Shown here piece after piece: positions 1 through 22,693 of a stretch of DNA of 64,000 bases; position 1 is the first letter of the stretch; each line of letters opens with the position of its first letter. The notes under the pieces were generated by a model that was not told the DNA's origin, searched no databases, and saw nothing but the letters and a program-made list of their open reading frames with translations. The position numbers and the translations under genes were made by a program. The DNA is taken from contig CANSWR010000001.1 of the NCBI GenBank assembly GCA_947650795.1, positions 64,398 to 128,397 on the forward strand, written 5' to 3'. Source of the DNA: an uncultured Bacillota bacterium (lineage in GTDB: Bacteria; Bacillota_I; Bacilli_A; RF39; UBA660).

Positions 1-1426
1 TATCTAAATACTCACATAAAGGTCTAACCTCTATAGTTTTTCCAGCTAAATTTGTTAAACTATCCTTTATCTCTTTTTGTAATGTTAATAAAGAATCACT
101 ATAAAGAAACCTATTTTGCTTCAATAATTCTAATCTTTCATTTACACTTTCTAATTCTTTTTTCTTACACTTTTTATCATATTCAAGCTTAAATTTAAGA
201 TTTTCACAAATATCTTTTTCATTCCTGTAATCATTTATAGTTTCTAAAAGCACACTTTCATACTTATCTATATCTTTTAACCCTGATTCTTTTTTTAATT
301 TTTCAATCCAAGAAAAAGCATTTAATTTTTTTAGCTCAACTTCAAAAATTTTAGAATAATTATCTATTGTAGGAATTAACTCTTCCTGTCTCCTTTTAAT
401 ATCATTTAGTTTGTTATCCAAATCTATAAAAATTTTATATTCTTCATTACTTTCTAACTTTTTTGTATAATCTCCAATATTTTTTTTGTTATCCTCTATT
501 TCTGTTTCTTTTTTAATACGAAGTGCTGTTTTTAATTTTATGTTATTATTATTTTTTTCTATTGTTTTCTTCATCTCATCAATAGAAAACTTCAAATTTT
601 CTCTTTGAATAACTTTTTGTAAATATTGATTCTTTTTAATATCTTTTTCTTTATCTTTATACTGATTGTAATTATTTTCTATTTCTTCTAAATTTTTTAT
701 TTTTTCTTCTTCTAATTCAATTTCTTTTTCTAATATACTAAAATTAGAAATATTTCTTTGTAAAGCGTCTAAACAAATAGTCTTTTCTGATAAAAGAAAT
801 TCAGTAACAAACTGATTAATATCTTTAATAGGTTTAAAAGCTAAAGATTTTGGCAGTAAATCAAAATACTTTCCTTTACTAGATAATCCTAAAAAAGCAG
901 ATATACAATTTTCAAATTCTTTTGAATTATTATATGTTTCAATATTAGATGTTTTAATAAACTGATTTAATGTTTTTAAAAGATTTTGATCAAGTATAAA
1001 TAATTCATCTGATATTGAAGTGTTGTTAAGTCTAAAAAACATCTTAGCTGGTCTATTCATAGAAGCATTAAACTCAATAACTGACCCAAGTAAGTCAAAA
1101 ACATTAGTTTCTTCATCAAAAAACTCTAAAACTATATAACTTGTAATATCTCCTTCTCTTAAAAATTCCTTATTTTCATACCCTACTTTACCTCTAATAT
1201 ATGTTTCTAAAGTTCTTTTATTCGTTTCATCTGCAGCTTGATTAAATTTTGCTTTCCCAGCTGTTAATACAAATTGAATAGCATCTAAAATAGTAGATTT
1301 ACCACTCCCATTCTCACCTGTAAATAAGCAATTATTCTTTAATGTAATGGTTTCATTCCAAAAATTATGCCAATTAATTAATTTGATCTTCTGTAATTTC
1401 TTCATTTTCTTCTTTTGATTCATCAT
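1..1426 (-). CDS. SMC-like ATPase, N-terminal part (JetC/MksB-like); the gene runs off the window start
   Basis: The reverse-strand frame is open from 1426 to position 1 with no stops, across more than 1.4 kb of AT-rich DNA. Its N-terminus, MNQKKKMKKLQKIKLINWHNFWNETITLKNNCLFTGENGSGKSTILDAIQFVL, is the JetC/MksB-type Walker A head. A long Glu/Lys-rich coiled-coil follows. The start overlaps the end of the upstream 218-aa gene, suggesting translational coupling. The gene sits third, after JetA-like and JetB-like genes. Confidence 0.6.
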   Translation of the reverse strand, partial: MMNQKKKMKKLQKIKLINWHNFWNETITLKNNCLFTGENGSGKSTILDAIQFVLTAGKAKFNQAADETNKRTLETYIRGKVGYENKEFLREGDITSYIVLEFFDEETNVFDLLGSVIEFNASMNRPAKMFFRLNNTSISDELFILDQNLLKTLNQFIKTSNIETYNNSKEFENCISAFLGLSSKGKYFDLLPKSLAFKPIKDINQFVTEFLLSEKTICLDALQRNISNFSILEKEIELEEEKIKNLEEIENNYNQYKDKEKDIKKNQYLQKVIQRENLKFSIDEMKKTIEKNNNNIKLKTALRIKKETEIEDNKKNIGDYTKKLESNEEYKIFIDLDNKLNDIKRRQEELIPTIDNYSKIFEVELKKLNAFSWIEKLKKESGLKDIDKYESVLLETINDYRNEKDICENLKFKLEYDKKCKKKELESVNERLELLKQNRFLYSDSLLTLQKEIKDSLTNLAGKTIEVRPLCEYLD

Positions 1427-2030
1427 TTTCTTCACTACCTTTATAACTTTCTATTTTACTAATAATTTCATTTACATTATTTATTCCAACTGCATACTGT
1501 ATTGTAGGATATATAATTATTGAAAAATCATCTTTTTGATAATCATCTCCTTTAAAATCGACTAAATTATATCTCTTAAGAATTTTTAACCCATCTCTTA
1601 ACTCATTAATTTTTAATCTTTCATTATTAGAATTCAATAACTGTTCATACTTTTCTTGTAACTCTAATATATTTATACGGATCTGATTATCTAATGAAAT
1701 TTCTGGCAATTTTTGATTATATAGAAGTCTAATAATTAATAAAATTAAACTAGTTACCTTATTAAGAGATAATTTTGAAGTATAAATCGAATCTAACACA
1801 AAAGTTTTATGGACTTGATAATGCGTTAATTCTCTACCACCAAGATAAAAATAATTATAGAAACAATCAAAATTATTACAAATAAAATAATAAATATTTC
1901 TATCTTCCTCTTTATAAAAAGTTAAATAATTAATATTAATTAATCTATTAACAATTTCTTGAAATTTTATAATATCTTTTTCACTTAATTTCATAAATTC
2001 CTTATTAAATACTTCCAAAACTTCTTTCAT
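1374..2030 (-). CDS. JetB/MksE-like protein (DUF4194-type size and position)
   Basis: A 218-aa ORF with an acidic C-terminal tail, tightly packed between the 454-aa and SMC-like genes. RBS AAGGAAG lies 8 nt upstream. Size and position match JetB/MksE. Confidence 0.5.
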   Translation of the reverse strand: MKEVLEVFNKEFMKLSEKDIIKFQEIVNRLININYLTFYKEEDRNIYYFICNNFDCFYNYFYLGGRELTHYQVHKTFVLDSIYTSKLSLNKVTSLILLIIRLLYNQKLPEISLDNQIRINILELQEKYEQLLNSNNERLKINELRDGLKILKRYNLVDFKGDDYQKDDFSIIIYPTIQYAVGINNVNEIISKIESYKGSEENDESKEENEEITEDQIN

Positions 2031-2035
2031 AATAT

Positions 2036-3400
2036 TTACTTCCTTTCTATAATAAAGTTAGAAATACAAGCACCATCAACAAATATTTCATCATCTAACC
2101 ACTTTATTTTATAATTATTATTTTTACTCTCAGAATACACAAATAAAAGAATTAATTTAATCAAATCATTATTATTCCTTATATTAAAATTGTTAATAGT
2201 TACCTGCCCATTTTCTTTTAATAAATCATTTATAAATTTTTTAATTTCTTTTAAAGAATATTGCTTAGATTTTTTTAAACTATTCATTAAATAACTGTCA
2301 TCAAATGTTTGATTATGATTTCTCACTTTAACCATTGAAGCCTTAACTTTAATATTTTTTCTAGGTGTAAAAAGTGACATTTTTGTAATATTTCTACTAT
2401 TAGAAAATAAAAAATTAATATCTTCTTCTTTTAAATAATTATAATTTTTTAATATAAATAATAATTGTCCTTCCATATCAGAATTATTATTCATTAAAAT
2501 TCTTATTTTTTCTATAGCAACATTTATATATTTAGAATTTTTTCTGTCAATTTCATCCATTATAAATATTATCCTGTCAAATACACTTTCTAAATGACAC
2601 ATAATCTCTTCAAATTTTTGTGATGCTTTTGGTAAATCTACATTTTCCTCGTCCATTATTTGATTAATTACAAGTTTCGACTGATATTCATCATAATGAA
2701 TCTTTTCACAATTATTTATAAATTTAGTCTTATATTTTATTGGATTATCATGTGTTTTCATATAAAAATACGCATTATCTATTACCTTTAATTTATAATC
2801 ATTAAGTAACTGATCTAAAATGGCACTTAATTGTTCTTCATCACTTTTTTGATCAAAGTTTGTAACATTATTGATATATTTTTTAATATTTGAATTTAAA
2901 CTTCTTAGTTTTCTTATCAAATCTTCAGCCTGATTAATACTATCTTTTAATACAAAATACATTCTTTTAGGATCAATAAACTTAATATTTTGATATATTC
3001 GGTAAACATAGCTACTTAATTCTATTTCATGTTCAGTCTCAAAATTAACAAATGTATTTAAAAAAGCAATAGCATAATCTTCAAAATTTACATTTAATTC
3101 TCCATCTACACCATATTCTGTATCAATCCATCCATAACCTTTAAGTTTTCTAAAAACCCAATTCGCCTTATCTCTGGAATTATTTAAACTAGCATCTTCT
3201 TGAATAAGCTCATCATCAAAATTAGTGTTAAAGTATTCTTCAATAATTTTAATAAAATTATCCTTAGAGAATGTATAACTGTTTTCTTGTTCACATTGAA
3301 AATATAACAAATATAAAATATTTGCAAAAGTAACTCTTGAAGATGAATTAAATAATTGAAAAAAATTATAAGGTAAAATTTCAAATAACTTAGTATCCAT
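2036..3400 (-). CDS. JetA/MksF-like kleisin-type protein (DUF3375-type size and position)
   Basis: A 454-aa ORF and the first gene of a three-gene operon that ends in the SMC-like ATPase. RBS AAGGAG lies upstream. Confidence 0.5.
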   Translation of the reverse strand: MDTKLFEILPYNFFQLFNSSSRVTFANILYLLYFQCEQENSYTFSKDNFIKIIEEYFNTNFDDELIQEDASLNNSRDKANWVFRKLKGYGWIDTEYGVDGELNVNFEDYAIAFLNTFVNFETEHEIELSSYVYRIYQNIKFIDPKRMYFVLKDSINQAEDLIRKLRSLNSNIKKYINNVTNFDQKSDEEQLSAILDQLLNDYKLKVIDNAYFYMKTHDNPIKYKTKFINNCEKIHYDEYQSKLVINQIMDEENVDLPKASQKFEEIMCHLESVFDRIIFIMDEIDRKNSKYINVAIEKIRILMNNNSDMEGQLLFILKNYNYLKEEDINFLFSNSRNITKMSLFTPRKNIKVKASMVKVRNHNQTFDDSYLMNSLKKSKQYSLKEIKKFINDLLKENGQVTINNFNIRNNNDLIKLILLFVYSESKNNNYKIKWLDDEIFVDGACISNFIIERK

Positions 3401-5013: not shown

Positions 5014-7146
5014 TTATAGTTCAAATTGAGAATTATAAAGCTCAGCATAAAACCCTTTCTTTTCCATCAATTCATCATGACTTCCAGTTTCGACTATATT
5101 ACCATCTTTCATAACTAAAATTAAATCAGCATTTTTAATCGTTGAAAGTCTATGTGCTATTATAAATGATGTTCTTCCTTCCATTAGCTTGTCCATAGCA
5201 TGTTGCACCAATTCTTCCGTTCTAGTGTCTACATTACTAGTAGCTTCATCTAAAATTAAGAAAGGAGCATCTTCAATCATACCACGGGCAATCGTAAGAA
5301 GTTGTCTTTGCCCAGCAGAAACAGAATCACTTTGACTAATATCAGTATCAAATCCTTGTGGTAAAGTTTTAATAAAATGAGTTAATCCAACTGTATCACA
5401 AACTTCTTTTATCTTTTCTTCAGTGACATTTACCCTATTATAAATAATATTCTCTCTAACAGTACCATTAAATAACCATGTATCTTGTAACACCATTGTA
5501 AATAAATTATGGATATTTTCTCTAGATAATTCTTTAGTAGAAACTCCGTCAATTTTAATATCTCCAGAATTTATTTCATAAAACTTCATAAGAAGATTTA
5601 CCATAGTGGTCTTACCAGCACCAGTGGGTCCTACAATAGCTATTTTTTGTCCCTGCGTTGCCTTAGCGCTAAAATCATTTATAATAATTCTTGATTCATC
5701 ATAACTAAATCTTACATGATCAAATTCTATATTACCCTTAACTTTATTTTTATCTAAAACTTTGACAACATTTTCTTCTGTATCCATTTCCTGTTCATCC
5801 AAAAATTCGAAAACTCGTTCACTAGCTGCTGCTGTACTCTGCATACTATTCATTGCCTGAGCTATTTCTGCAAGAGGTGAAGTAAATAATCTTACATATG
5901 TAATGAATGCAACTATAACTCCAAAAGTAATACTACCATTAACTGTTAAAAGTGCTCCTACAACACATACTGCTACATATCCAAAATTACCAATAAACAT
6001 CATCATAGGCTGCATAATACCAGCTAAAAATTGACTTTTTCTATTAGCGTCAAATACCTTTTTATTTATTTCATCAAATTTGCTATTTGCTTCTTCTTTA
6101 CCATTATAAGCTTTTACGACTAAAAGGCCTGAGTAAACTTCTTCAATATGAGAATTAAGCCTTCCCAATTCTTCTTGTCTTGCTCTAAAATATTTTTGAG
6201 ATTTACTTAAAATCATAAACATAAATACAAAGCCAATTAAACTTGCTACGATTGCAGTAATTGCCATTAAATAATTAGTAATAAACATCATTAAGACAGT
6301 TCCAACAAGCAAAGTCGTAGCGCTCACTAAACTTGCTAATGATTGATTCATACTCTGAGCAATTGTATCAACATCATTAGTAACCCTTGATAACACATCT
6401 CCTGTTTGATTTTTATCAAAATAAGAAAGAGGTAATTTATTTATTTTTACTGAAATTCTATTTCTCAACTTTCTAGCAAAATTATTAGAAACAACTGTCA
6501 TTATTATACCTTCAAAAAAATTAAGAAGAGCACTAGTCAAATATAATAATCCTAAAAATATAGAAATCTTTTTAACCTTATCTAAATCCATAAAAGGTTT
6601 TACTATATTTCTTATAGACTTAGGACACTCATCAATCTTTTTATAAACTTGACTAACATCATGATTTTCAAGAGTACTAAAAATTCGAATAAACTTTACT
6701 TGATCTTGAGTACTAATTTCTTCATTCTCTATACTAAATTTAGGTAAAATAATATTTAAAGTATTTTCAGAAAGATCCATTAAATTTTTTATAAATTCTT
6801 CACTTTTATTTGTATCTACACTTAACATCGTATTTAAAAATTCTTGCTTCTCTAATTCATCTAATTTATAACTATTTAATACTGCATTTACATCTATATT
6901 AGCTAATTTTCTATTAATAGTATTAGAAATACTTTCAAACTTTTCTTGATTAACTACCAATCCACTTGAAATTGTATCAGTTAATTTTGAAAGTTTATTA
7001 GGCGCAACTATTGATAAAACACTACCACTAACTGCAAAAACTAAAGCAATTACAATTAAAATTCTAAAACTTCTAAGTTCACTAAAAAGTCTTTTAATAG
7101 ATTGACCAAAATTTTTAGATTTATCCGTTCCTCCTCGTCTATTCAT
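5014..7146 (-). CDS. ABC exporter, fused permease-ATPase subunit (heterodimeric multidrug/lipid-type)
   Basis: Six-TM domain followed by an NBD with Walker A GPTGAGKTT, signature SAGQRQLLTIARGM and Walker B ILDEATS. An extracellular insert of about 150 aa follows TM1. The gene overlaps the upstream partner by 8 nt. Confidence 0.9.
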   Translation of the reverse strand: MNRRGGTDKSKNFGQSIKRLFSELRSFRILIVIALVFAVSGSVLSIVAPNKLSKLTDTISSGLVVNQEKFESISNTINRKLANIDVNAVLNSYKLDELEKQEFLNTMLSVDTNKSEEFIKNLMDLSENTLNIILPKFSIENEEISTQDQVKFIRIFSTLENHDVSQVYKKIDECPKSIRNIVKPFMDLDKVKKISIFLGLLYLTSALLNFFEGIIMTVVSNNFARKLRNRISVKINKLPLSYFDKNQTGDVLSRVTNDVDTIAQSMNQSLASLVSATTLLVGTVLMMFITNYLMAITAIVASLIGFVFMFMILSKSQKYFRARQEELGRLNSHIEEVYSGLLVVKAYNGKEEANSKFDEINKKVFDANRKSQFLAGIMQPMMMFIGNFGYVAVCVVGALLTVNGSITFGVIVAFITYVRLFTSPLAEIAQAMNSMQSTAAASERVFEFLDEQEMDTEENVVKVLDKNKVKGNIEFDHVRFSYDESRIIINDFSAKATQGQKIAIVGPTGAGKTTMVNLLMKFYEINSGDIKIDGVSTKELSRENIHNLFTMVLQDTWLFNGTVRENIIYNRVNVTEEKIKEVCDTVGLTHFIKTLPQGFDTDISQSDSVSAGQRQLLTIARGMIEDAPFLILDEATSNVDTRTEELVQHAMDKLMEGRTSFIIAHRLSTIKNADLILVMKDGNIVETGSHDELMEKKGFYAELYNSQFEL

Positions 7147-8902
7147 TATTTAATTCCTCCTCTGAAAGTTGTGATAAAGCTATTTGTTTATAAACATCAC
7201 AATTCTTTAAAAGTTCTTTATGTGTGCCTATTCCCACACATTTACCACTATCTAACACCATAATTTTATCTGCATTCATAATAGTTCCTATTCTCTGTGC
7301 TACAATTAAACTTGTAGCATTTTTAGTATATTTTTTTAATTCTTTGCGTAGAATAGCATCCGTTTTATAATCAAGTGCAGAAAAACTATCATCAAAAATA
7401 TAAATTTCAGGATCTCTAGCTATTGCTCTAGCAATGGAAAGTCTTTGCTTTTGACCTCCAGAAACATTTGTACCTCCCTGAGCAATATGAGCATTATACG
7501 TACCGTCCATTTTTTCAACAAATTCTTGACCTTGTGCGACCTTAATAGCTTCTTTTATAATCTTATCACTTTTTTCTCCTTTACCATTATCTCCATACGC
7601 TACATTAGACTTAACAGTACCATCAAACATAACAGCTTTCTGAGGAACATATCCTATTTTATTATGAAGAATATCTTGTTTATAATCTTTAACATTAATT
7701 CCATCAATCAAGACTTCTCCTTCTGTTACATCATAAAATCTAGGTATCAAATTTATAAGAGTACTCTTTCCACTTCCAGTACTTCCAATAAAAGCTATAG
7801 TTTCTCCTCTATTAGCTTTAAATGAAATATTTTTAAGTAAACATTCTTCTGCATCTGGATATTTAAAACTAACATCCTTAAATTCTACAGTTCCAACTAA
7901 ATCAGTTTCTACATTCTGAATGTCTCCGTCTTTTATACTAATCTCACTTTCAATAACTTCATTTATACGTTCTGCTGACACCTGCGCTCTAGGAATCATC
8001 ATAAATATCATAGCAAGCATTAAAAATGACATAATAACCTGCATAGCATAAGAACTAAAAACTACCATATCTCCAAATAAAACTAATTTATCTGACATAG
8101 TCGCGACATCAATAATATGAGCTCCTATAAAATATATAGCTAAAGTTAAAAAATACATAATCAAATACATTACAGGTGACATAACGCTAAAAGCTTTCTG
8201 ATTAAATAACTGCATATTAGTTAATTCATCATTACATTTACCAAACTTATTCTCTTGATACTTTTCTGCATTAAATGCACGCACTACTCTAATTCCTGTA
8301 ACATTCTCTCTAGTAATATTATTTATTTTATCTATCAATTTTTGAACTTTTTTAAACCTTGGAAGAACCAAAATCATTAAAGTTATAATAGTGCTTAAAA
8401 GTATTAAAACTGCTACTGCAACAACTGCACTCCACTGCCAATTCTTATTAAGAATTTTAGTAATCGCCCAAACAGCAGTTATAGGTGCTTTAATAATTAA
8501 CTGTAACCCCATAGAAATAAGCATTTGTATTTGAGTAATATCATTAGTAGTTCTAGTAATTAAACTACTAGTAGAAAATTGTTTTACTTCATGAATTCCT
8601 AAATCTCCTACTTTGCTAAATAATTTTTTTCTAACTTTCATAGAAAAACTTGCAGAAATATTAGAAGCAGTGAAGCCAACTATAATAGCAGAAATAAGAC
8701 TCCCTAAAGCACACAAAAGCATATACCCACCATTTAAAAGTATTTCTTTCATACTACTTCCTTCTGTTTGTACTAAAACAGTAATCTTAGACATATAATC
8801 TGGCAGTCTCAAATCAAGCCAAACTTGACCGACTATTAATAAAATTGCAAATATTATAAAAAATATATCTTTTCTATTAAAATTTCTAAATAATTTAAAC
8901 AT
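7139..8902 (-). CDS. ABC exporter, fused permease-ATPase subunit (partner)
   Basis: TM domain followed by Walker A GSTGSGKST, signature VSGGQKQRLSIARAIA and Walker B IYIFDDSFSALD. RBS AGGAGGG. No C39 peptidase domain is present. Confidence 0.9.
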   Translation of the reverse strand: MFKLFRNFNRKDIFFIIFAILLIVGQVWLDLRLPDYMSKITVLVQTEGSSMKEILLNGGYMLLCALGSLISAIIVGFTASNISASFSMKVRKKLFSKVGDLGIHEVKQFSTSSLITRTTNDITQIQMLISMGLQLIIKAPITAVWAITKILNKNWQWSAVVAVAVLILLSTIITLMILVLPRFKKVQKLIDKINNITRENVTGIRVVRAFNAEKYQENKFGKCNDELTNMQLFNQKAFSVMSPVMYLIMYFLTLAIYFIGAHIIDVATMSDKLVLFGDMVVFSSYAMQVIMSFLMLAMIFMMIPRAQVSAERINEVIESEISIKDGDIQNVETDLVGTVEFKDVSFKYPDAEECLLKNISFKANRGETIAFIGSTGSGKSTLINLIPRFYDVTEGEVLIDGINVKDYKQDILHNKIGYVPQKAVMFDGTVKSNVAYGDNGKGEKSDKIIKEAIKVAQGQEFVEKMDGTYNAHIAQGGTNVSGGQKQRLSIARAIARDPEIYIFDDSFSALDYKTDAILRKELKKYTKNATSLIVAQRIGTIMNADKIMVLDSGKCVGIGTHKELLKNCDVYKQIALSQLSEEELNNE

Positions 8903-9915: not shown

Positions 9916-10644
9916 ATGAAGGTTAATAAAAATAAAAACACAGAAGCTAGCAAAAATAATAATAAAATATATATATTTGCAAAAGGGGTTTCTTGGCAAA
10001 AATTATTCATAATTTTTATAATTGGGTGTCTTTTCGGCAATTACTATGAAATGATTTTAAACTTAGTTAGACATTATTTAAGAGATGGTTCAATATTTTG
10101 GGAAGTAAGAAGAGGATTTATATACTTTCCATTAAGTCCAGTATACGGAGCTGGTGCTGTTTTAATGACATTAGCATTTGCAGAAAAAAATTATAAATGG
10201 CATCAAATATTAATATATGGTGCAGTACTTGGAGGATCGTTTGAATATATAATAAGTTTTTTACAAGAAACTTTTACTGGAACAGTATCATGGAATTATA
10301 CCAGATACCCTCTTGATATAAATGGAAGAACAACAATTCCAATAATGTTTCTATGGGGCATATTATGTGTAATATTTATCAAATTAATTTATCCATTTAT
10401 AAGTAAATATATAGAAAAAATACCTTACAAAATTGGAAATATAATAACAAAAATTTTAGTAATAATAATTATATTTGATGCAGCGATTTCCTTTACAGCT
10501 GTAATTAGACAATCTTTAAGAAGAGAAGGAATAAAACCATTTACATTTATTGGAGAATTTTGCGACAAGATATATACCGATGAAAGACTAAAAAAAGCTT
10601 ACCCTAATATGAAACTGCCTAAAAAGAAGGATGTGATAAAATGA
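9916..10644 (+). CDS. Polytopic membrane protein, DUF1113/ABC_trans_CmpB-like
   Basis: 242 aa with about six TM helices. It is translationally coupled (ATGA overlap) to the downstream GT2 gene. Confidence 0.45.
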   Translation: MKVNKNKNTEASKNNNKIYIFAKGVSWQKLFIIFIIGCLFGNYYEMILNLVRHYLRDGSIFWEVRRGFIYFPLSPVYGAGAVLMTLAFAEKNYKWHQILIYGAVLGGSFEYIISFLQETFTGTVSWNYTRYPLDINGRTTIPIMFLWGILCVIFIKLIYPFISKYIEKIPYKIGNIITKILVIIIIFDAAISFTAVIRQSLRREGIKPFTFIGEFCDKIYTDERLKKAYPNMKLPKKKDVIK

Positions 10645-14340: not shown

Positions 14341-15417
14341 TTAATTACTTGAAAGCTTAACATTAACAGTTTCCTCTTTTCCATTTCTAAGAATAGTAAG
14401 CACGATTGTCTCATCAGGAGAATAACTATAAAGTCTATACCTAAACTCCGCTATATCACTTACCCAGTTATCTCCCACTTTAACAATCACATCTCCTCGT
14501 TCAAGTCCAGCCTTATCTCCTGGACTGCCACTTTCTATTTCAACAACTACTACACCTTCTTCTATCTCTTTATCCAACCTAACACCAGCATAAGCAAGTT
14601 GCATTGTACTACTAGCATTTAACATACTTACCCCAATATAAGGTCTACTAATACTACCTTTTTCTCTCAAACTATTTGCATAACTAATCGCATCCTCAAT
14701 AGGAATAGAAAATCCAATTCCCTCAATAGTATCTTTAACAATTTTTAAAGAATTAATACCAATAACTTCTCCATTAGCATTACATAAAGGGCCACCACTG
14801 TTCCCTGGATTAATCGCAGCATCAGTTTGCATAACATTCATAATCCAATCAGCTTGACTAGAATTAACATTAACTGAAACTAACCTATCTTTCCCACTAA
14901 GAATCCCTCTTGTAACAGTTCCTCTAAAATCTATACCCATAGGACTTCCTATAGTAAATACAGTATCTCCTACTTTCATATCAGTACTATTTCCTATAGT
15001 AGCAACACTCTTTACATCACTTTTAGGTACTCTCAAAACTGCAATATCTGCATATTGATCACTACCAACCACACTTGCCGTTCCTTCACTATCATCACTA
15101 TAAGTAATTTTTATATCTCCAGCATCCTCTATTACATGATGATTAGTCATAATATAACCAAACTCTTCATCTTGATCATACATAAAACCTGTTCCAGTAC
15201 TAACTAAATTCTTACCACTATAAACTTCTATAACAACTACTGAATCTTTAATTTTATCTACAGCAGCACTTATTCCTGTATCTGTTATATTAACATTTTC
15301 TTCCCTTATAGTTTTAACAACTGTCTTAGGGTATAAATATAATACTCCAAACATAACTAATGCCCCAAAAATAAAACACAACAAACTTAGTAAAATATAA
15401 GTAATTTTCTTTCTCAA
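14341..15417 (-). CDS. htrA: HtrA/DegP-family serine protease (TM anchor, trypsin-like domain, PDZ)
   Basis: N-terminal TM helix. Catalytic motifs HH at MTNHHVIEDA and GNSGGPL. The C-terminus is a PDZ domain. Confidence 0.9.
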   Translation of the reverse strand: MRKKITYILLSLLCFIFGALVMFGVLYLYPKTVVKTIREENVNITDTGISAAVDKIKDSVVVIEVYSGKNLVSTGTGFMYDQDEEFGYIMTNHHVIEDAGDIKITYSDDSEGTASVVGSDQYADIAVLRVPKSDVKSVATIGNSTDMKVGDTVFTIGSPMGIDFRGTVTRGILSGKDRLVSVNVNSSQADWIMNVMQTDAAINPGNSGGPLCNANGEVIGINSLKIVKDTIEGIGFSIPIEDAISYANSLREKGSISRPYIGVSMLNASSTMQLAYAGVRLDKEIEEGVVVVEIESGSPGDKAGLERGDVIVKVGDNWVSDIAEFRYRLYSYSPDETIVLTILRNGKEETVNVKLSSN

Positions 15418-15423
15418 ACTTTA

Positions 15424-16359
15424 TCATCCTTCCATATACATAATATCTCTATAATTAGGTGGAAATCCCATTTTATCTAAAACTTCATCAATAGTAATTG
15501 TATGTAATTTTCCACTAAGTCTATCAAACTCATAATTAATTTCATTCATCATCATTTTAAAATCAGTATGAGTTAATAAAAACTTCAAAATAATTATAAG
15601 AGCAAAAATATCATTCTTCCCATATACATATTCATCATTAGTTTTATCAATATTTAATAAATTATGATACTTATTATCAGGAATAACTCTCTGAGTAAAA
15701 TGGTCAAAAACAATATCCTCATGTGCACATAAATTTCTATAATTAGCGAGTATTGGCAAAAATATTTCCATTTCCTCTGGAGAAATATTATAAATACCTG
15801 CTATTTCCTCCTTATTATGATACTTAAGTACACTAAACATCTCACTCATAATTCCAAAACTAATAACTTTAATACCTATCCAAAGAGGAATATAACCATA
15901 ATTATCCATATAATGACTAGTCGCACCATGATTTTTTCCATTAATTCGAAGTTGCCTTTTAACCTTTCTTACCAAATCATTAATTTGTCTACTCTTAGAT
16001 TTATCAGTATCAAAATTTTTGCTATTTAAATAATCTTTTTCTTTATAACCATAATCTTTACTTAAAACATAACTAAAAATTGATTTATAGTTATTCTCAA
16101 CAATAAGTATATTTTTAAAGATAATATTTCTAAACATTCTATCAAACACAAACAAACTATAAAGTTCCTCAAAACTTGAACCATCTTTAAACTTTCTAGT
16201 TGTATCATGTTTAATAAACAAATGCCTATATCCCATAATAAAGAAATAATTTTCACGAAGTAAAACTTCTTTAGCATATTCTTCATCATTAATTAATAGA
16301 CCTTTATCTTTCAAAATATTAATTTGTTCATCTAAATTTCTAAATACTTTATTTGCCAA
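15424..16359 (-). CDS. Abi_2 family abortive-infection protein (AbiD/AbiF-like)
   Basis: 311 aa. The conserved motif ANYRNLCAHEDIVFD (RNxxAHxxxxF) and an N-terminal LxxKG segment are typical of Abi_2 (PF07751). Confidence 0.6.
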   Translation of the reverse strand: MANKVFRNLDEQINILKDKGLLINDEEYAKEVLLRENYFFIMGYRHLFIKHDTTRKFKDGSSFEELYSLFVFDRMFRNIIFKNILIVENNYKSIFSYVLSKDYGYKEKDYLNSKNFDTDKSKSRQINDLVRKVKRQLRINGKNHGATSHYMDNYGYIPLWIGIKVISFGIMSEMFSVLKYHNKEEIAGIYNISPEEMEIFLPILANYRNLCAHEDIVFDHFTQRVIPDNKYHNLLNIDKTNDEYVYGKNDIFALIIILKFLLTHTDFKMMMNEINYEFDRLSGKLHTITIDEVLDKMGFPPNYRDIMYMEG

Positions 16360-16473
16360 CCCTCGTCACCTAAAATAAATTCTATCATAAACTTAACACT
16401 TTAACCACATTTTTCACATAATTTTCTTTTTATACTACATATTTTATGTTAATATTATAATAGGTGATTAATT

Positions 16474-16866
16474 ATGAATAATACAAATAATATTATACAA
16501 GTTTTTGAAAAAGCAATTTATAGAAGTTATATATTTGAAACTATTAGCTGCTTAGAAAAACTTTACGACAGAGATAATGGATACTTAGTTGGAAAAGTTA
16601 CTATAACACCTAGAGAAGATGGAAAAGTAAACATAAGTGTACCAATTTCTAAAAAAGAAATAATCGAAGGAAAACATGAAGAAGTTTTTGTAAAATCATG
16701 CGCTCCAAACGATGTTAGCAGTATTATAGAAGGACTTACCAATACTTATACTAGAGATTCTGGTTGGTCTATAGGCGAAAGAGAAATAATTAACATTGAT
16801 GAATTATCTTCTGTAGTAAGAGTAGAATTAAAAAAAGCCGCTAAAGGGCCTTTCTTAAATAACTAG
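16474..16866 (+). CDS. Hypothetical protein (130 aa)
   Basis: Clean ORF with AT-rich promoter-like sequence upstream. No family recognised. It is convergent with the next gene. Confidence 0.5.
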   Translation: MNNTNNIIQVFEKAIYRSYIFETISCLEKLYDRDNGYLVGKVTITPREDGKVNISVPISKKEIIEGKHEEVFVKSCAPNDVSSIIEGLTNTYTRDSGWSIGEREIINIDELSSVVRVELKKAAKGPFLNN

Positions 16867-17648
16867 TTTAATCTAGTTTTTTTTAAAGTCTTCATATGTT
16901 CTTCTAAACTATTATCTAAAGAAATAGTTCCATAATCATGAATATACTCAATAAATCCTCTGCTGGTTCCTATATAAGATGCCCATTTATCAGGGTCTGT
17001 CACAATTTTCATAGAAATATCTCCATTTATTCTACTTCCAACTAAATCATTAATTTCCTTAACAGAAGATAAAGCTACATCTTGATTATTATTAATTATA
17101 ATCCCAAAATATGAATTCTTATTTAACACTTCTTTAAATAAACTAACAAACATATCTAAATTCATAAAAGGTATTGAAACCTTAGAAATATCAATTTTTT
17201 CTTTATTTAAAACATAACTAGTGTATGAACTCAAATAAAACTCTATAGAATCATAAAATGCAATCTTTAAATCTTCAACCTTCTTAAGTTCACTAAATTC
17301 TGAATTTCTAAAACATCTATTAAAAACAGAAATAATTTTAGACATTCTCTTTTCTAATTCATCTAACCCAATTCTCTCTATTGAGTTTAACAGTATTTTA
17401 TAAACTATTAAAAAATGCAAATACTCTCTACTCAAAGTAGTTATTAAAAGTTTATCTTGTTCATCACTTAATTCATATTTTGGAAATCCATATTCCTCTA
17501 AATAAATTGCCATAGGTGTATCTTTATCAAGCAAAACTGGATACTTATCTTCTAAAGACTTACAAAATTTTCTTCTTTCATCAGTATCATATCCATAAAT
17601 AAATAAATGCCTATTTTCTTCCATTATTAACTTTTCAAATCTTTCCAT
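16863..17648 (-). CDS. Hypothetical protein (261 aa)
   Basis: Clean ORF with no recognisable motifs. It lies in the same small island as the Abi gene. Confidence 0.5.
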   Translation of the reverse strand: MERFEKLIMEENRHLFIYGYDTDERRKFCKSLEDKYPVLLDKDTPMAIYLEEYGFPKYELSDEQDKLLITTLSREYLHFLIVYKILLNSIERIGLDELEKRMSKIISVFNRCFRNSEFSELKKVEDLKIAFYDSIEFYLSSYTSYVLNKEKIDISKVSIPFMNLDMFVSLFKEVLNKNSYFGIIINNNQDVALSSVKEINDLVGSRINGDISMKIVTDPDKWASYIGTSRGFIEYIHDYGTISLDNSLEEHMKTLKKTRLN

Positions 17649-17724
17649 TACCCACCTCTCAAATTAAGAATAACATTTAAAAATTATAATGTAAAGAAAA
17701 AGTCCAAAACATTTTGGACCAAAA

Positions 17725-18123
17725 TTATCTCTTACTAAATTGTGGAGCACGTCTTGCTTTCTTAAGACCATATTTCTTACGCTCTTTAATTCTAGCATCT
17801 CTAGTTATCATACCAGTACCCTTTAAAGTAGGTCTATATGCTTCACTATTTACTTCAAGTAAAGCTCTTGCTATTCCTAATCTAGTTGCACCAGTTTGAC
17901 CATCAAATCCTCCACCTTTAACTGTAACTTCAACATCAAAGTCATTTTCAGTTCCAGTAAGAACAAGAGGTTGCTTTAAATCCATAACTAAAGTTTCATA
18001 AGGAAAATAATTATTAACATCAACACCATTGACAGTAATATTCCCTTTACCACTTACTAACGTAACTTGTGCTACTGCTCTTTTTCTTCTACCAGTAGCT
18101 CTATATCTCTTTGCGTCTGCCAT
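17725..18123 (-). CDS. rpsI: 30S ribosomal protein S9
   Basis: [20 protein letters not shown]...RRAPQFSKR is the canonical S9 sequence. Confidence 0.95.
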
Positions 18124-18131
18124 TTTTCCTC

Positions 18132-18560
18132 CTATAACTCAATTCTTTCAGGTTTTTGAGCTTCATGTTTATGTTCACTTGCTTCATATACATAAAGATT
18201 TCTAAACATATCTCTTCCAAGTCTATTCTTAGGAAGCATTCCCTTAATAGCTCTTTCAACCATCTCAACTGGATATTTTTCTTTCATAACTTTAGCAGTT
18301 CTTTCTCTTAAACCACCTGGATACCCACTATGATTATAATAAACTTTCTTTTCAAGTTTATCTCCAGTAAGATTTACCTTACCAGCATTAATGATAATCA
18401 CTGCATCTCCGCAATTAACATGAGGTGTAAAAGTTGGCTTATGCTTACCACGTAAAATATGTGCAGCTTTACTTGCAACTCTACCTAAATTTTGCCCTTC
18501 AGCATCAATTACGAACCATTTAGTGCTTACATCTTCTTTTCTTAACATAAATGTTTTCAT
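18132..18560 (-). CDS. rplM: 50S ribosomal protein L13
   Basis: [48 protein letters not shown]. The true ATG is at 18560 with RBS AAGGAGA. The longer ORF in the track begins at an upstream alternative start. Confidence 0.95.
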
Positions 18561-18751
18561 AAATTTTAATCTCCTTCTATTTGTCCCTAATATATATGCC
18601 TTCCCACAACATAAATACCAAGCACAATAAAAATGTACCAAGTATCATTATACTATAAAGTTTCACAAAGTCAAACAAAATTTCCGTCTATTAACAAAAA
18701 ATAAAATTACCACACCAGACTTTGCATAAAATCCTAAGTAAAGAGTACAAT

Positions 18752-20955: not shown

Positions 20956-21217
20956 TTGACAAACAAACATATTTATTATAAAATATCAACATAAATCGTT
21001 GAGAAAGAAGAGTAATATTAGACACTATTTATAGAAAGCCAAGTATGATGGAAATTGGTAATAAGACTAATATGAATAAAAACTTTTGAGTGGCAAATGC
21101 CCGGTTAATACCGTTACAAATATTGAGAAATCAAGTTATTGATAAATAAGGGTGGTACCACGAATTAAAACTCGTCCCTTAATAACAATAACTTTTTTAT
21201 TTTAAGGAGGAAATATT
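20956..21217 (+). promoter_or_regulatory. T-box riboswitch leader of lysS, with promoter, stem I, F-box, T-box and terminator
   Basis: TTGACA, 17-nt spacer, TAAAAT promoter. Stem I elements GTTGAGAAAGAAGAGTA. F-box CCGTTA. T-box AAGGGTGGTACCACG, followed by a terminator hairpin and a T-run. Confidence 0.7.
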
Positions 21218-22693
21218 ATGAGAGAATTTACAGAACAGGAGACTGTAAGAAGAGAAAAATTAGCTAGCATTAAAGAAATCTGCAACCCTTACCCAGAAAA
21301 ATTTGAACGTACTCACACATTAAAAGAAGCACAACAATTAAAAGATGGAGAAATAAATATATCTTTAGCAGGAAGAATCGTATTTATGAGAAAAATGGGA
21401 AAACTAAGCTTTGTAAAAATTAGAGACTTAGAAGGTAGCATGCAACTAGAAATTAAAATAGATATAATTGGAGAAGAAAAATATGAATTCTTTAAAAAAT
21501 TAATAGACACTGGAGATTTTATAGGCGCTAATGGAGAAATATTTACAACACAAACAGGAGAGAAAACACTTAGAGTTAGCACACTAGAATTTCTAGGAAA
21601 AGCACTGAGACCACTTCCAGAAAAATTTCATGGATTACAAGACACAGAACTTAAATATAGACAAAGATATGTTGACCTTATAACAAATGAAGAAGCAAGA
21701 AACATTTTCCTAGGAAGAAGTAAACTTTATGCGTTTATTCATAAATATTTAGGAGAAAATGGATTTTTACAAGTCGAAACACCAATATTACAAACAGCAG
21801 TATCAGGTGCCTCAGCAAAACCTTTCTTCACACATCATAATGCACTAGACATAGATTGTAACCTTAGAATCGCACCTGAGATTTATTTAAAAGAATGTAT
21901 TGCAGGAGGATTTGATAAAGTCTATGAAATATCAAAATGCTTTAGAAACGAAGGTATGGATACAGAACACTTACAAGAATTTACTCAAGTAGAATGGTAT
22001 GCATCTTACTGGAATTTTGAAGATAACATAAAATTTTATACTAACTTTATAAAAGAACTTATAAAAGAATTAACAGGAACAACCACTATTGAATATCAAA
22101 ATAACACATTAGACTTTGGTAAAGAAAATTGGAATAGAATAAACTATTGTGAAGAAATGAACAAAATTTTTGGTTTTGACTTCTTAAATATAACTGAACC
22201 AGCAGAATTAAAACAAAAAATAGTAGAAAAAGGTTTATTTACTTTACAAGAACTTGAAGAATATCACTCATTAAGTCAAATAATAGACTTCGTATATAAA
22301 AATAAAGTTCGTAAAAACATCATAGAACCAACAATAATTTATAACTATCCAGCAGTTTTAATACCTTTAGCAAGAAGAAACGATGAAGATCCAAGAAGAA
22401 TAGATGTATTTCAAGTAATCGCAGCAGGTACAGAGCTTTGCAAAGCATACTCAGAATTAGTAAACCCTCAAACTCAAAGAGAAACATTTGAAGACCAATT
22501 AAAAGCAAAAAGTCAAGGCGATGATGAAACTATGGACTTAGACGAAAATTTCTTACTAGCTATGGAACAAGGAATGCCACCAATATCTGGATTAGGATTT
22601 GGAATAGACAGACTTATGATGCTAATTTATAATGCACCTTCAATAAGAGATGTAGTATTATTTCCATTAATGAAACCAGAAAATAATAACTAA
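21218..22693 (+). CDS. lysS: Lysine--tRNA ligase (class II)
   Basis: N-terminal OB anticodon-binding domain, class II motifs and a C-terminal GLGFGIDRLMMLI segment. Confidence 0.95.
   Translation: MREFTEQETVRREKLASIKEICNPYPEKFERTHTLKEAQQLKDGEINISLAGRIVFMRKMGKLSFVKIRDLEGSMQLEIKIDIIGEEKYEFFKKLIDTGDFIGANGEIFTTQTGEKTLRVSTLEFLGKALRPLPEKFHGLQDTELKYRQRYVDLITNEEARNIFLGRSKLYAFIHKYLGENGFLQVETPILQTAVSGASAKPFFTHHNALDIDCNLRIAPEIYLKECIAGGFDKVYEISKCFRNEGMDTEHLQEFTQVEWYASYWNFEDNIKFYTNFIKELIKELTGTTTIEYQNNTLDFGKENWNRINYCEEMNKIFGFDFLNITEPAELKQKIVEKGLFTLQELEEYHSLSQIIDFVYKNKVRKNIIEPTIIYNYPAVLIPLARRNDEDPRRIDVFQVIAAGTELCKAYSELVNPQTQRETFEDQLKAKSQGDDETMDLDENFLLAMEQGMPPISGLGFGIDRLMMLIYNAPSIRDVVLFPLMKPENNN

Follow-up and report, generated by a model that had tools for sequence, protein, structure and literature searches.

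A conserved abi2-htrA gene pair next to a variable spacer in an order-level group of low-GC gut Bacilli

Between the core genes htrA and rplM-rpsI of an uncultured Bacillota bacterium (GTDB lineage Bacilli_A, RF39, UBA660) lie three genes, one coding for a protein of the Abi_2 family (abi2) and two open reading frames (ORFs) for proteins of 130 and 261 amino acids (ORF130 and ORF261). They are part of a 64,000-nucleotide stretch of assembly GCA_947650795.1 (contig CANSWR010000001.1, positions 64,398 to 128,397 of the forward strand), which was analysed as a whole and is referred to as the window. A preliminary description, made from the sequence alone, had taken the three genes for a small defence-like insertion and the two ORFs, hitch-hiking beside an abortive-infection gene, for candidates for new defence or counter-defence functions. 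Its ORF coordinates are exact, and its assignment of the Abi_2 protein holds, as does its view of htrA and rplM-rpsI as core genes. The comparison with related genomes nevertheless shows abi2 and htrA, as far as sequence can tell, to be an ancestral, fixed, single and vertically inherited pair across an order-level group of low-GC gut Bacilli. We consider it probable that the locus consists of two layers, an ancestral abi2-htrA operon and a variable spacer between rpsI and abi2, into which ORF130 and ORF261 came as recent cargo.

Relatives were collected by searching one genome of each species with HtrA as the query, which gave at least 79 loci among the best matches by HtrA similarity; their records are those of uncultured Bacilli, Tenericutes and Mollicutes as well as of Clostridium sp. 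CAG:628, CAG:524 and CAG:1000, names that would suit a gut lineage of the RF39 type. The window proteins were compared with these loci using tblastn, and counts were made over the 73 loci of Bacilli type whose HtrA relative is full-length. All 73 species-level loci carry a full-length Abi_2 orthologue 6-80 nucleotides (nt) upstream of htrA, and in each of them the identity to the window copy is higher for Abi_2 than for HtrA. Mean identity to the window proteins amounts to 80.3% for RplM, 73.7% for RpsI, 70.3% for Dus, 69.6% for Abi_2 and 56.4% for HtrA. The Abi_2 orthologues (n=76) are of nearly uniform length (309-315 residues), and 119 of the 311 positions, among them R208, N209 and H213, show a conservation of at least 97%; the R-x4-H site of the HEPN domain is invariant among them. 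Against four sister species the ratio of nonsynonymous to synonymous substitution rates (dN/dS) of abi2 is 0.05-0.08, no different from that of DAGK, HtrA and RplM. Pairwise Abi_2 distances correlate with those of RpsI (Pearson 0.93) and RplM (0.91), no less closely than RpsI and RplM correlate with each other, and since the distances of Abi_2 track those of RpsI and RplM, abi2 was evidently inherited vertically. Defence genes are normally patchy and strain-variable. Neither the patchy distribution nor the mobile context expected of such a gene is found for abi2, which occupies one syntenic position throughout. The idea of a small insertion thus stands for ORF130 and ORF261, which are lineage-restricted additions, and falls for Abi_2, which no other element of the locus exceeds in stability. 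Comparison of this intergenic region in relatives had been proposed with the thought that the two ORFs might turn out to be conserved irrespective of the Abi gene; what emerged is the reverse, with Abi kept everywhere regardless of the two ORFs.

The carriers of the abi2-htrA pair are uncultured organisms. The matches listed in an Abi_2-based homology search are all at least 64% identical, and the pair is described here within this lineage. In one complete chromosome assigned to 'Clostridium sp.' (L102, CP091739.1; loci of other genomes are given by such L numbers), dus, rplM, abi2 and htrA are each broken into two to four frame-shifted fragments, which looks like an indel error of long-read assembly rather than pseudogenisation.

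The ribosome-binding site of htrA (GGAAGGA) is embedded in the last codons of abi2, and because of this position the pair looks operonic; we infer an abi2-htrA operon from it. In most of 75 orthologous upstream regions, as judged by eye and without a count, abi2 is preceded by an extended -10 element of the type TGnTAnAAT, at a distance of some 25 nt from the ribosome-binding site. The leader implied by this element measures only about 15-20 nt, and the spacing leaves no room for an RNA leader of about 100 nt of the kind known from abiF. In the prophage phi027 of C. difficile, the toxic Abi_2 protein AbiF_Cd is neutralised by RCd22, a co-transcribed upstream RNA of roughly 100 nt with two abiF motifs (Rfam RF03085), transcription beginning 168 nt ahead of the ATG (PMC12373285). 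No counterpart of this RNA, the hallmark of the AbiF-type system with its likeness to type III toxin-antitoxin systems, was found at abi2: RF03085 gave no match at E-values of up to 10 between positions 15300 and 18800, and at the gathering score it matched neither the window as a whole nor any of eight orthologous loci. Some 20-40 nt upstream of the -10 element, the window clade and several others carry a conserved box with the core T(T/A)TGTGAAA, whatever cargo lies upstream, and equivalents at the same position were found in L025-L051, L078 and L095. This box may act as an UP-element or as an operator of the abi2-htrA operon; for a cre-like site, the window copy fits the consensus poorly. 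In genomes with a compact gap, hairpins and T-runs resembling the rpsI terminator precede the abi2 promoter.

The assignment to the Abi_2 family is known biology. The protein matches PF07751 over all of the 184 profile positions (1-184) with an E-value of 3e-37 (129 bits against a cut-off of 25.6), PADLOC AbiD at 1.3e-51 and phrog_2158 at 2e-64, and its motif YRNLCAHEDIVF fits the pattern RNxxAHxxxxF that had been noted before; a solved structure named 'Abi family protein' (8vz6) matches at 1e-12. With AbiD, AbiD1 and AbiF, including AbiF_Cd, it shares the full-length Abi_2 domain and a size of about 300 residues, and its HEPN residues R208 and H213 are the counterparts of R202 and H207 of AbiF_Cd. 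The window protein differs from these relatives, which are patchy and mobile, in being fixed in its lineage and passed on vertically, and in being encoded together with htrA in what appears to be one operon; identity to Abi proteins of plasmids and phages does not exceed 33%. The abiF/abi_2 genes surveyed earlier are missing from many genomes within a species and are enriched beside defence and mobile genes, and for chromosome-encoded Abi_2 proteins the function was described as unknown (PMC12373285).

Taken together with its upstream signals, Abi_2 would be a resident, constitutively made HEPN RNase with its own extended -10 element, a short leader and no abiF-type RNA antitoxin. It would not be a mobile abortive-infection cassette. 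It may have been domesticated to take part, together with HtrA, in RNA turnover or stress quality control, or else remain latent until triggered. In the latter case Abi_2 would be a true abortive-infection effector, not repurposed, which became fixed as core innate immunity and stays inactive until a phage trigger arrives. Lactococcal AbiD1 is activated by a phage product. An effector of this kind would also account for the intact R-x4-H site, as both the arginine and the histidine (R202 and H207) are required for the toxicity of AbiF_Cd, and for the ties of the family to defence and mobile elements elsewhere (PMC12373285). Against it stand the presence of the gene in all species examined with a conservation like that of ribosomal proteins and a congruent divergence, as opposed to the patchy abiF/abi_2 genes (PMC12373285), the lack of a match to the RNA antitoxin model in the window and the eight orthologous loci, and the operonic arrangement with a protease of protein quality control. 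We regard such a latent effector as possible, if rather doubtful. The other case, in which the HEPN RNase of these genome-reduced gut Bacilli was domesticated into an antitoxin-free core enzyme, possibly essential, that serves with HtrA in housekeeping or stress, and in which ORF130 arose at its promoter as a clade-specific modulator, is a tentative proposal that we rate as fairly unlikely in this complete form.

The second layer is a variable site that reaches from the rpsI terminator to the abi2 promoter; about half of the species have nothing in it, and the others carry unrelated cargo there. Its length was measured in the 62 loci that hold both rpsI and abi2, and amounts to 109-141 base pairs (bp) in 30 of them, 179-351 bp in four and 479-6032 bp in the remaining 28. 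The cargo comprises one to eight genes of mixed function, and its ORFs fall into many unrelated clusters; representatives are an AAA_14/DUF4143 ATPase, chloramphenicol acetyltransferase, PspC-domain, UDG-like and DeoC proteins, a nucleoside deoxyribosyltransferase-like protein, LD-carboxypeptidase, and HD and GNAT proteins, to which inspection by eye adds Nudix proteins, a GntR-ABC transporter set, a RelB/YafQ-like pair and surface proteins. The last-named pair lies in L029 at 259-841 (+), where by eye a RelB/DinJ-like ORF (96 residues) and a YafQ/RelE-like ORF (100 residues), overlapping by a few bases, stand beside a gene of the ORF130 family. Judged by these contents, the spacer is a generic accessory-gene slot and not a defence island. 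Variable or integration hotspots 3' of conserved genes are familiar from the rpsI-targeting integrative elements of streptococci. The likeness lies in the cargo that varies between species immediately downstream of rpsI; unlike those elements, the cargo in the window comes without an integrase, att repeats or mobile-element genes. There is no compositional break at the locus, the GC profile being flat at roughly 22-30%, and a search for direct or inverted repeats, tRNA-like sequences or att sites around it returned short chance repeats only.

ORF130 and ORF261 are genuine genes rather than chance ORFs, because both are preceded by strong ribosome-binding sites, have conserved homologues and show a dN/dS below 1 against orthologues at a synonymous divergence (dS) like that of the flanks. 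As had been described, they converge and share four nucleotides (CTAG) at their 3' ends. The overlap itself is variable: in the same-species alleles L005 and L006 and in the sister species L019 and L020, a gap of 6-10 nt separates the two genes. The ORF261 allele of L005/L006 encodes 258 instead of 261 residues, is 99% identical over residues 1-257 and ends 6 nt past the ORF130 stop codon, which makes the overlap polymorphic inside the species. A regulatory role of the CTAG overlap was considered and dropped, as it is not conserved even among alleles of one species.

ORF130 codes for a small cytoplasmic protein with an internal duplication, in which two beta-alpha-beta-beta units each contain the motif Y..(D/S)G(W/Y).(V/I)(G/D). 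No significant match was obtained for it in Pfam, NCBIfam, PADLOC or PHROGs, and scans of viral contigs turned up no relatives of the family. A word-indexed search of a collection of 5.8 billion proteins yielded seven clusters of relatives at 67-100% identity, and an exhaustive search of 1.84 billion representatives with a hidden Markov model added about seven further proteins of 128-130 residues. Among these representatives the family, an orphan one, comprises about nine clusters at 50% identity. Giant repeat proteins also came up as relatives and were set aside as spurious short-motif matches, Pfam identifying them as unrelated surface proteins. The gene is under purifying selection (dN/dS 0.10-0.12), and the dS of its orthologues matches that of the flanking genes. 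It is carried by those genomes, and no others, in which Abi_2 reaches at least 79% identity to the window protein; in the next clade, with Abi_2 at 76-77.5%, a PspC-like gene takes its place. This distribution fits a single gain followed by vertical descent. In the window clade, ORF130 was the first of the two ORFs to be gained, and it has been retained beside abi2 as a constrained small protein.

Every placeable gene of the ORF130 family stands directly upstream of and divergent from abi2, both in the close relatives of the window (L016-L026) and in L027, L029, L031, L035, L037 and L041; in L031 a protein of 600 residues is encoded beside it. This adjacency is suggestive of a functional tie, and the best alternative for the role of ORF130 is that of a clade-specific modulator of the Abi_2 RNase, be it an inhibitor, an antitoxin or a regulator, transcribed divergently from a shared control region of 114 bp. 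In favour of this are the minute size of the family, the purifying selection on a protein that has nevertheless diverged to 25-30% identity between subclades, against 79-85% for Abi_2, and the gene being kept where ORF261 decays and being the sole cargo in L035. If, however, a single gain and vertical descent explain its distribution, the adjacency to abi2 counts as one independent observation, confined to one clade. More than 50 species have an intact and equally conserved Abi_2 and no ORF130, in L041 a single repeat of the protein is left while Abi_2 is intact, and the protein resembles no known antitoxin or immunity protein. On balance, we consider the modulator distinctly unlikely.

ORF261 came second. 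It entered on the rpsI side of ORF130, and only the closest species have it at this place. The preliminary description had found no recognisable motifs in either ORF. For sequence searches with the window proteins this is borne out, since ORF261 likewise gave nothing significant in Pfam, NCBIfam, PADLOC or PHROGs; it does not extend to the fold of ORF261, which becomes apparent from structure and through homologues. These homologues form 71 clusters at 32-99% identity. The PF24389 ORC-CDC6-like profile, for which the window protein has no match at E-values of up to 1, was matched by five of eight homologues, three of them at 39.1, 34.3 and 28.3 bits and thus above the gathering cut-off of 27 bits, two at 24.4 bits, and not by the other three; the homologues cover only about positions 74-287 of the 571 of the profile. 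The fold is the alpha/beta core of AAA+ proteins of the ORC/Cdc6 type, in which strand 2 is followed by a long helical insert. After b5 there is a single helix before the protein stops at residue 261, and neither a C-terminal helical lid nor winged-helix domains are present. At the Walker A position, in the b1-a1 loop, it reads G19-YDTDERR, with FIYGYxxxxR as the family consensus and GK[ST] in none of 45 members, and at the Walker B position GIIINNNQ, where the family consensus GIIIDK has no acidic pair. On account of the missing Walker motifs, ORF261 is best described as a standalone pseudo-ATPase, as predicted from its sequence. A family profile run against the sequences of solved structures returned nothing significant.

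The ORC/Cdc6-type core with its helical insert relates ORF261 to BrxB ('iSTAND'), Orc3, Rif2, the AAA+-like domain of Sir3 and PF24389, and with the inactive ORC/Cdc6-STAND-like modules among these (BrxB, Orc3, Rif2 and the Sir3 domain) it shares the degenerate Walker motifs, the missing C-terminal bundle and the standalone state. BrxB of the BREX system has been described as an inactive STAND/ORC-Cdc6 fold without Walker motifs and helical bundle (bioRxiv 10.1101/2025.10.09.681413). ORF261 would not hydrolyse ATP and, if it works at all, would most likely serve as a protomer-like scaffold or adaptor as BrxB, Orc3 and Rif2 do. In contrast to BrxB, it lies outside any BREX locus, its immediate neighbours being rpsI, ORF130, abi2 and htrA. 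A part in BREX or another defence system was considered for the family and rejected, as 45 members have no PADLOC match except for two stray matches to Cas models; in the scan of viral contigs, no contig carries a member.

Within the genus-level clade, dS of ORF261 is 0.68-0.91 and thus like that of the flanks, while its dN is 4-8 times higher, with dN/dS at 0.35-0.48, and in one sister species (L016, L025) all that is left of the gene is 68-69 codons, with a deletion inside. This points to relaxed constraint on ORF261 and to its ongoing loss. Elsewhere, homologues occur in 27 other loci as solitary genes, mostly among housekeeping genes, for example next to coaD, tyrS or secA, and neither Abi_2 nor ORF130 is ever found beside them. 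L012-L014 illustrate that members of the family move singly: the lone homologue at 6001-6789 has a PBP5/DacB-like gene on one side and spmA/spmB-like ('Gate' domain) genes on the other. Clustering of the neighbours in the 27 loci brought out an ASCH/kinase-like gene in six and a family of 176-186 residues in three, both missing from the window. The latter carries the motif YP.KFAVL.V.E.GGW..GYE...G.I.SKCYL.E and is encoded one or two genes downstream of the ORF261 homologues (L015 at 7476-8006, L111 at 6737-7294, and L115); it may be a partner of the ORF261 family.

The two ORFs also part company with each other: genes of the ORF130 family are found in L027, L029, L031, L035 and L037, where ORF261 is missing, and in L016 and L025, where no more than a remnant of ORF261 is left. 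As read from these gene contexts, the two are not parts of one system, and present evidence does not join them to Abi_2 in one either. The suggestion that they hitch-hike beside the Abi gene as defence candidates therefore finds little backing in the 27 ORF261 loci, which never adjoin Abi_2, or in ORF130, which is always beside abi2 in one clade only and whose tie goes back to a single gain. The hint at defence or counter-defence weakens further with the miscellaneous nature of the other cargo and the lack of PADLOC, PHROG and viral matches for both ORFs. The idea of a mobile defence island of three genes between core genes, in which ORF130 and ORF261 would be new partners of the Abi gene in defence or counter-defence, still draws on several observations: the membership in the Abi_2/AbiD family is genuine, both ORFs are lineage-restricted, ORF261 evolves fast and has a fold in common with the defence ATPases RdrA, BrxC and Avs, and the pair seen by eye in L029 at the same spot resembles a toxin-antitoxin system. 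It is at odds with an Abi_2 gene that is ancestral and fixed in 73 of 73 relatives, many of them with an empty rpsI-abi2 spacer, with the flat composition and the lack of integrase, att-like flanks and repeats described above, with the cargo of other species, which is mostly metabolic or miscellaneous, and with the dispensability of ORF261, decayed in L016 and L025. For the Abi gene this explanation is largely refuted; for the two ORFs it survives with low probability, and as a whole we consider it very improbable.

Several points weigh against the two-layer reading itself. Strong conservation is compatible with defence, and a fixed, latent Abi would give an identical sequence picture. The abiF motif is short, and a divergent RNA partner might escape the search. 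The relatives were drawn via HtrA similarity, and this sample bounds the known reach of the abi2-htrA pair. That the placed genes of the ORF130 family all adjoin abi2 is not predicted by a view of the spacer as holding purely random cargo. Finally, a link between Abi_2 and ORF261 is not absurd, because HEPN domains (Abi2/Swt1) are found fused to ORC/Cdc6-like ATPases in the DUF499 proteins of BREX-related systems (PMC3710099; bioRxiv 10.1101/2025.10.09.681413); in the window, however, ORF261 is a neighbour of recent date and dispensable.

The order-wide, ribosomal-protein-like conservation of an antitoxin-less Abi_2 in a probable operon with htrA appears to be new, no description of such an arrangement having been found in the literature searched, and it offers a clean test case for the possible domestication of a HEPN toxin. 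It also bears on annotation: with its PADLOC AbiD match and the PHROG label 'abortive infection', abi2 will be called phage defence in every genome of this lineage, and is thus a concrete case of how 'defence' labels can mislead discovery by guilt-by-association in islands. Of more modest interest are the addition of a family of standalone pseudo-AAA+ proteins of the ORC/Cdc6-like type through ORF261 and that of a tiny orphan family through ORF130.

Features of the locus between htrA and rplM, in window coordinates
Feature	Position	Strand	Remarks
htrA, trypsin-like serine protease with PDZ domain	14341-15417	-	TTG start; Pfam Trypsin_2 1e-31, PDZ_2 4e-18
abi2, HEPN protein of the Abi_2/AbiD-F family, 311 residues	15424-16359	-	motif NYRNLCAHED (R208, H213)
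Ribosome-binding site of abi2	16366-16371	-	AGGTGA
Putative extended -10 element of abi2	16379-16389	-	TATGATAGAAT; promoter role inferred
Conserved box	16405-16426	-	GAAAATTATGTGAAAAATGTGG; 5' of the abi2 -10 element, inside the divergent spacer common to abi2 and ORF130
ORF130	16474-16866	+	
ORF261	16863-17648	-	
ORF130/ORF261 overlap	16863-16866		CTAG
Intrinsic terminator 3' of rpsI	17701-17720	-	stem-loop and T-run; border of the variable spot on the rpsI side
rpsI	17725-18123	-	Pfam Ribosomal_S9 1e-47
rplM	18132-18560	-	Pfam Ribosomal_L13 9e-49

For rplM, the mechanically called ORF spans 18132-18641 (-) with a TTG start and 169 residues, while gene callers and homologues favour the start at 18560, which gives a protein of 142 residues. 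At the corresponding locus of L026, two ssNA-helicase RNA motifs (RF03070) were detected at 1005-1054 (+) and 10407-10455 (-) with 47.9 and 43.4 bits, the second of them inside an insertion of roughly 3.2 kb between htrA and the DAGK gene that is missing from the window.

About 12 kb away from abi2, and unrelated to the finding on this gene, the window contains a Wadjet-type locus (1374-3400, -) that probably runs off its left end. JetB (DUF4194; PADLOC JetB 7e-45) is encoded at 1374-2030, and a JetA-family protein (Pfam JetA 2e-74) is present among the ORFs of the window, assigned by position only to the 454-residue ORF at 2036-3400; jetC is expected beyond base 1 of the window. On the other side of the locus, a T-box leader at 20990-21182 (+), with 103.7 bits against a cut-off of 93, precedes a gene for a class II aminoacyl-tRNA synthetase (21218-22693), an arrangement that is also present in L035 and L043.

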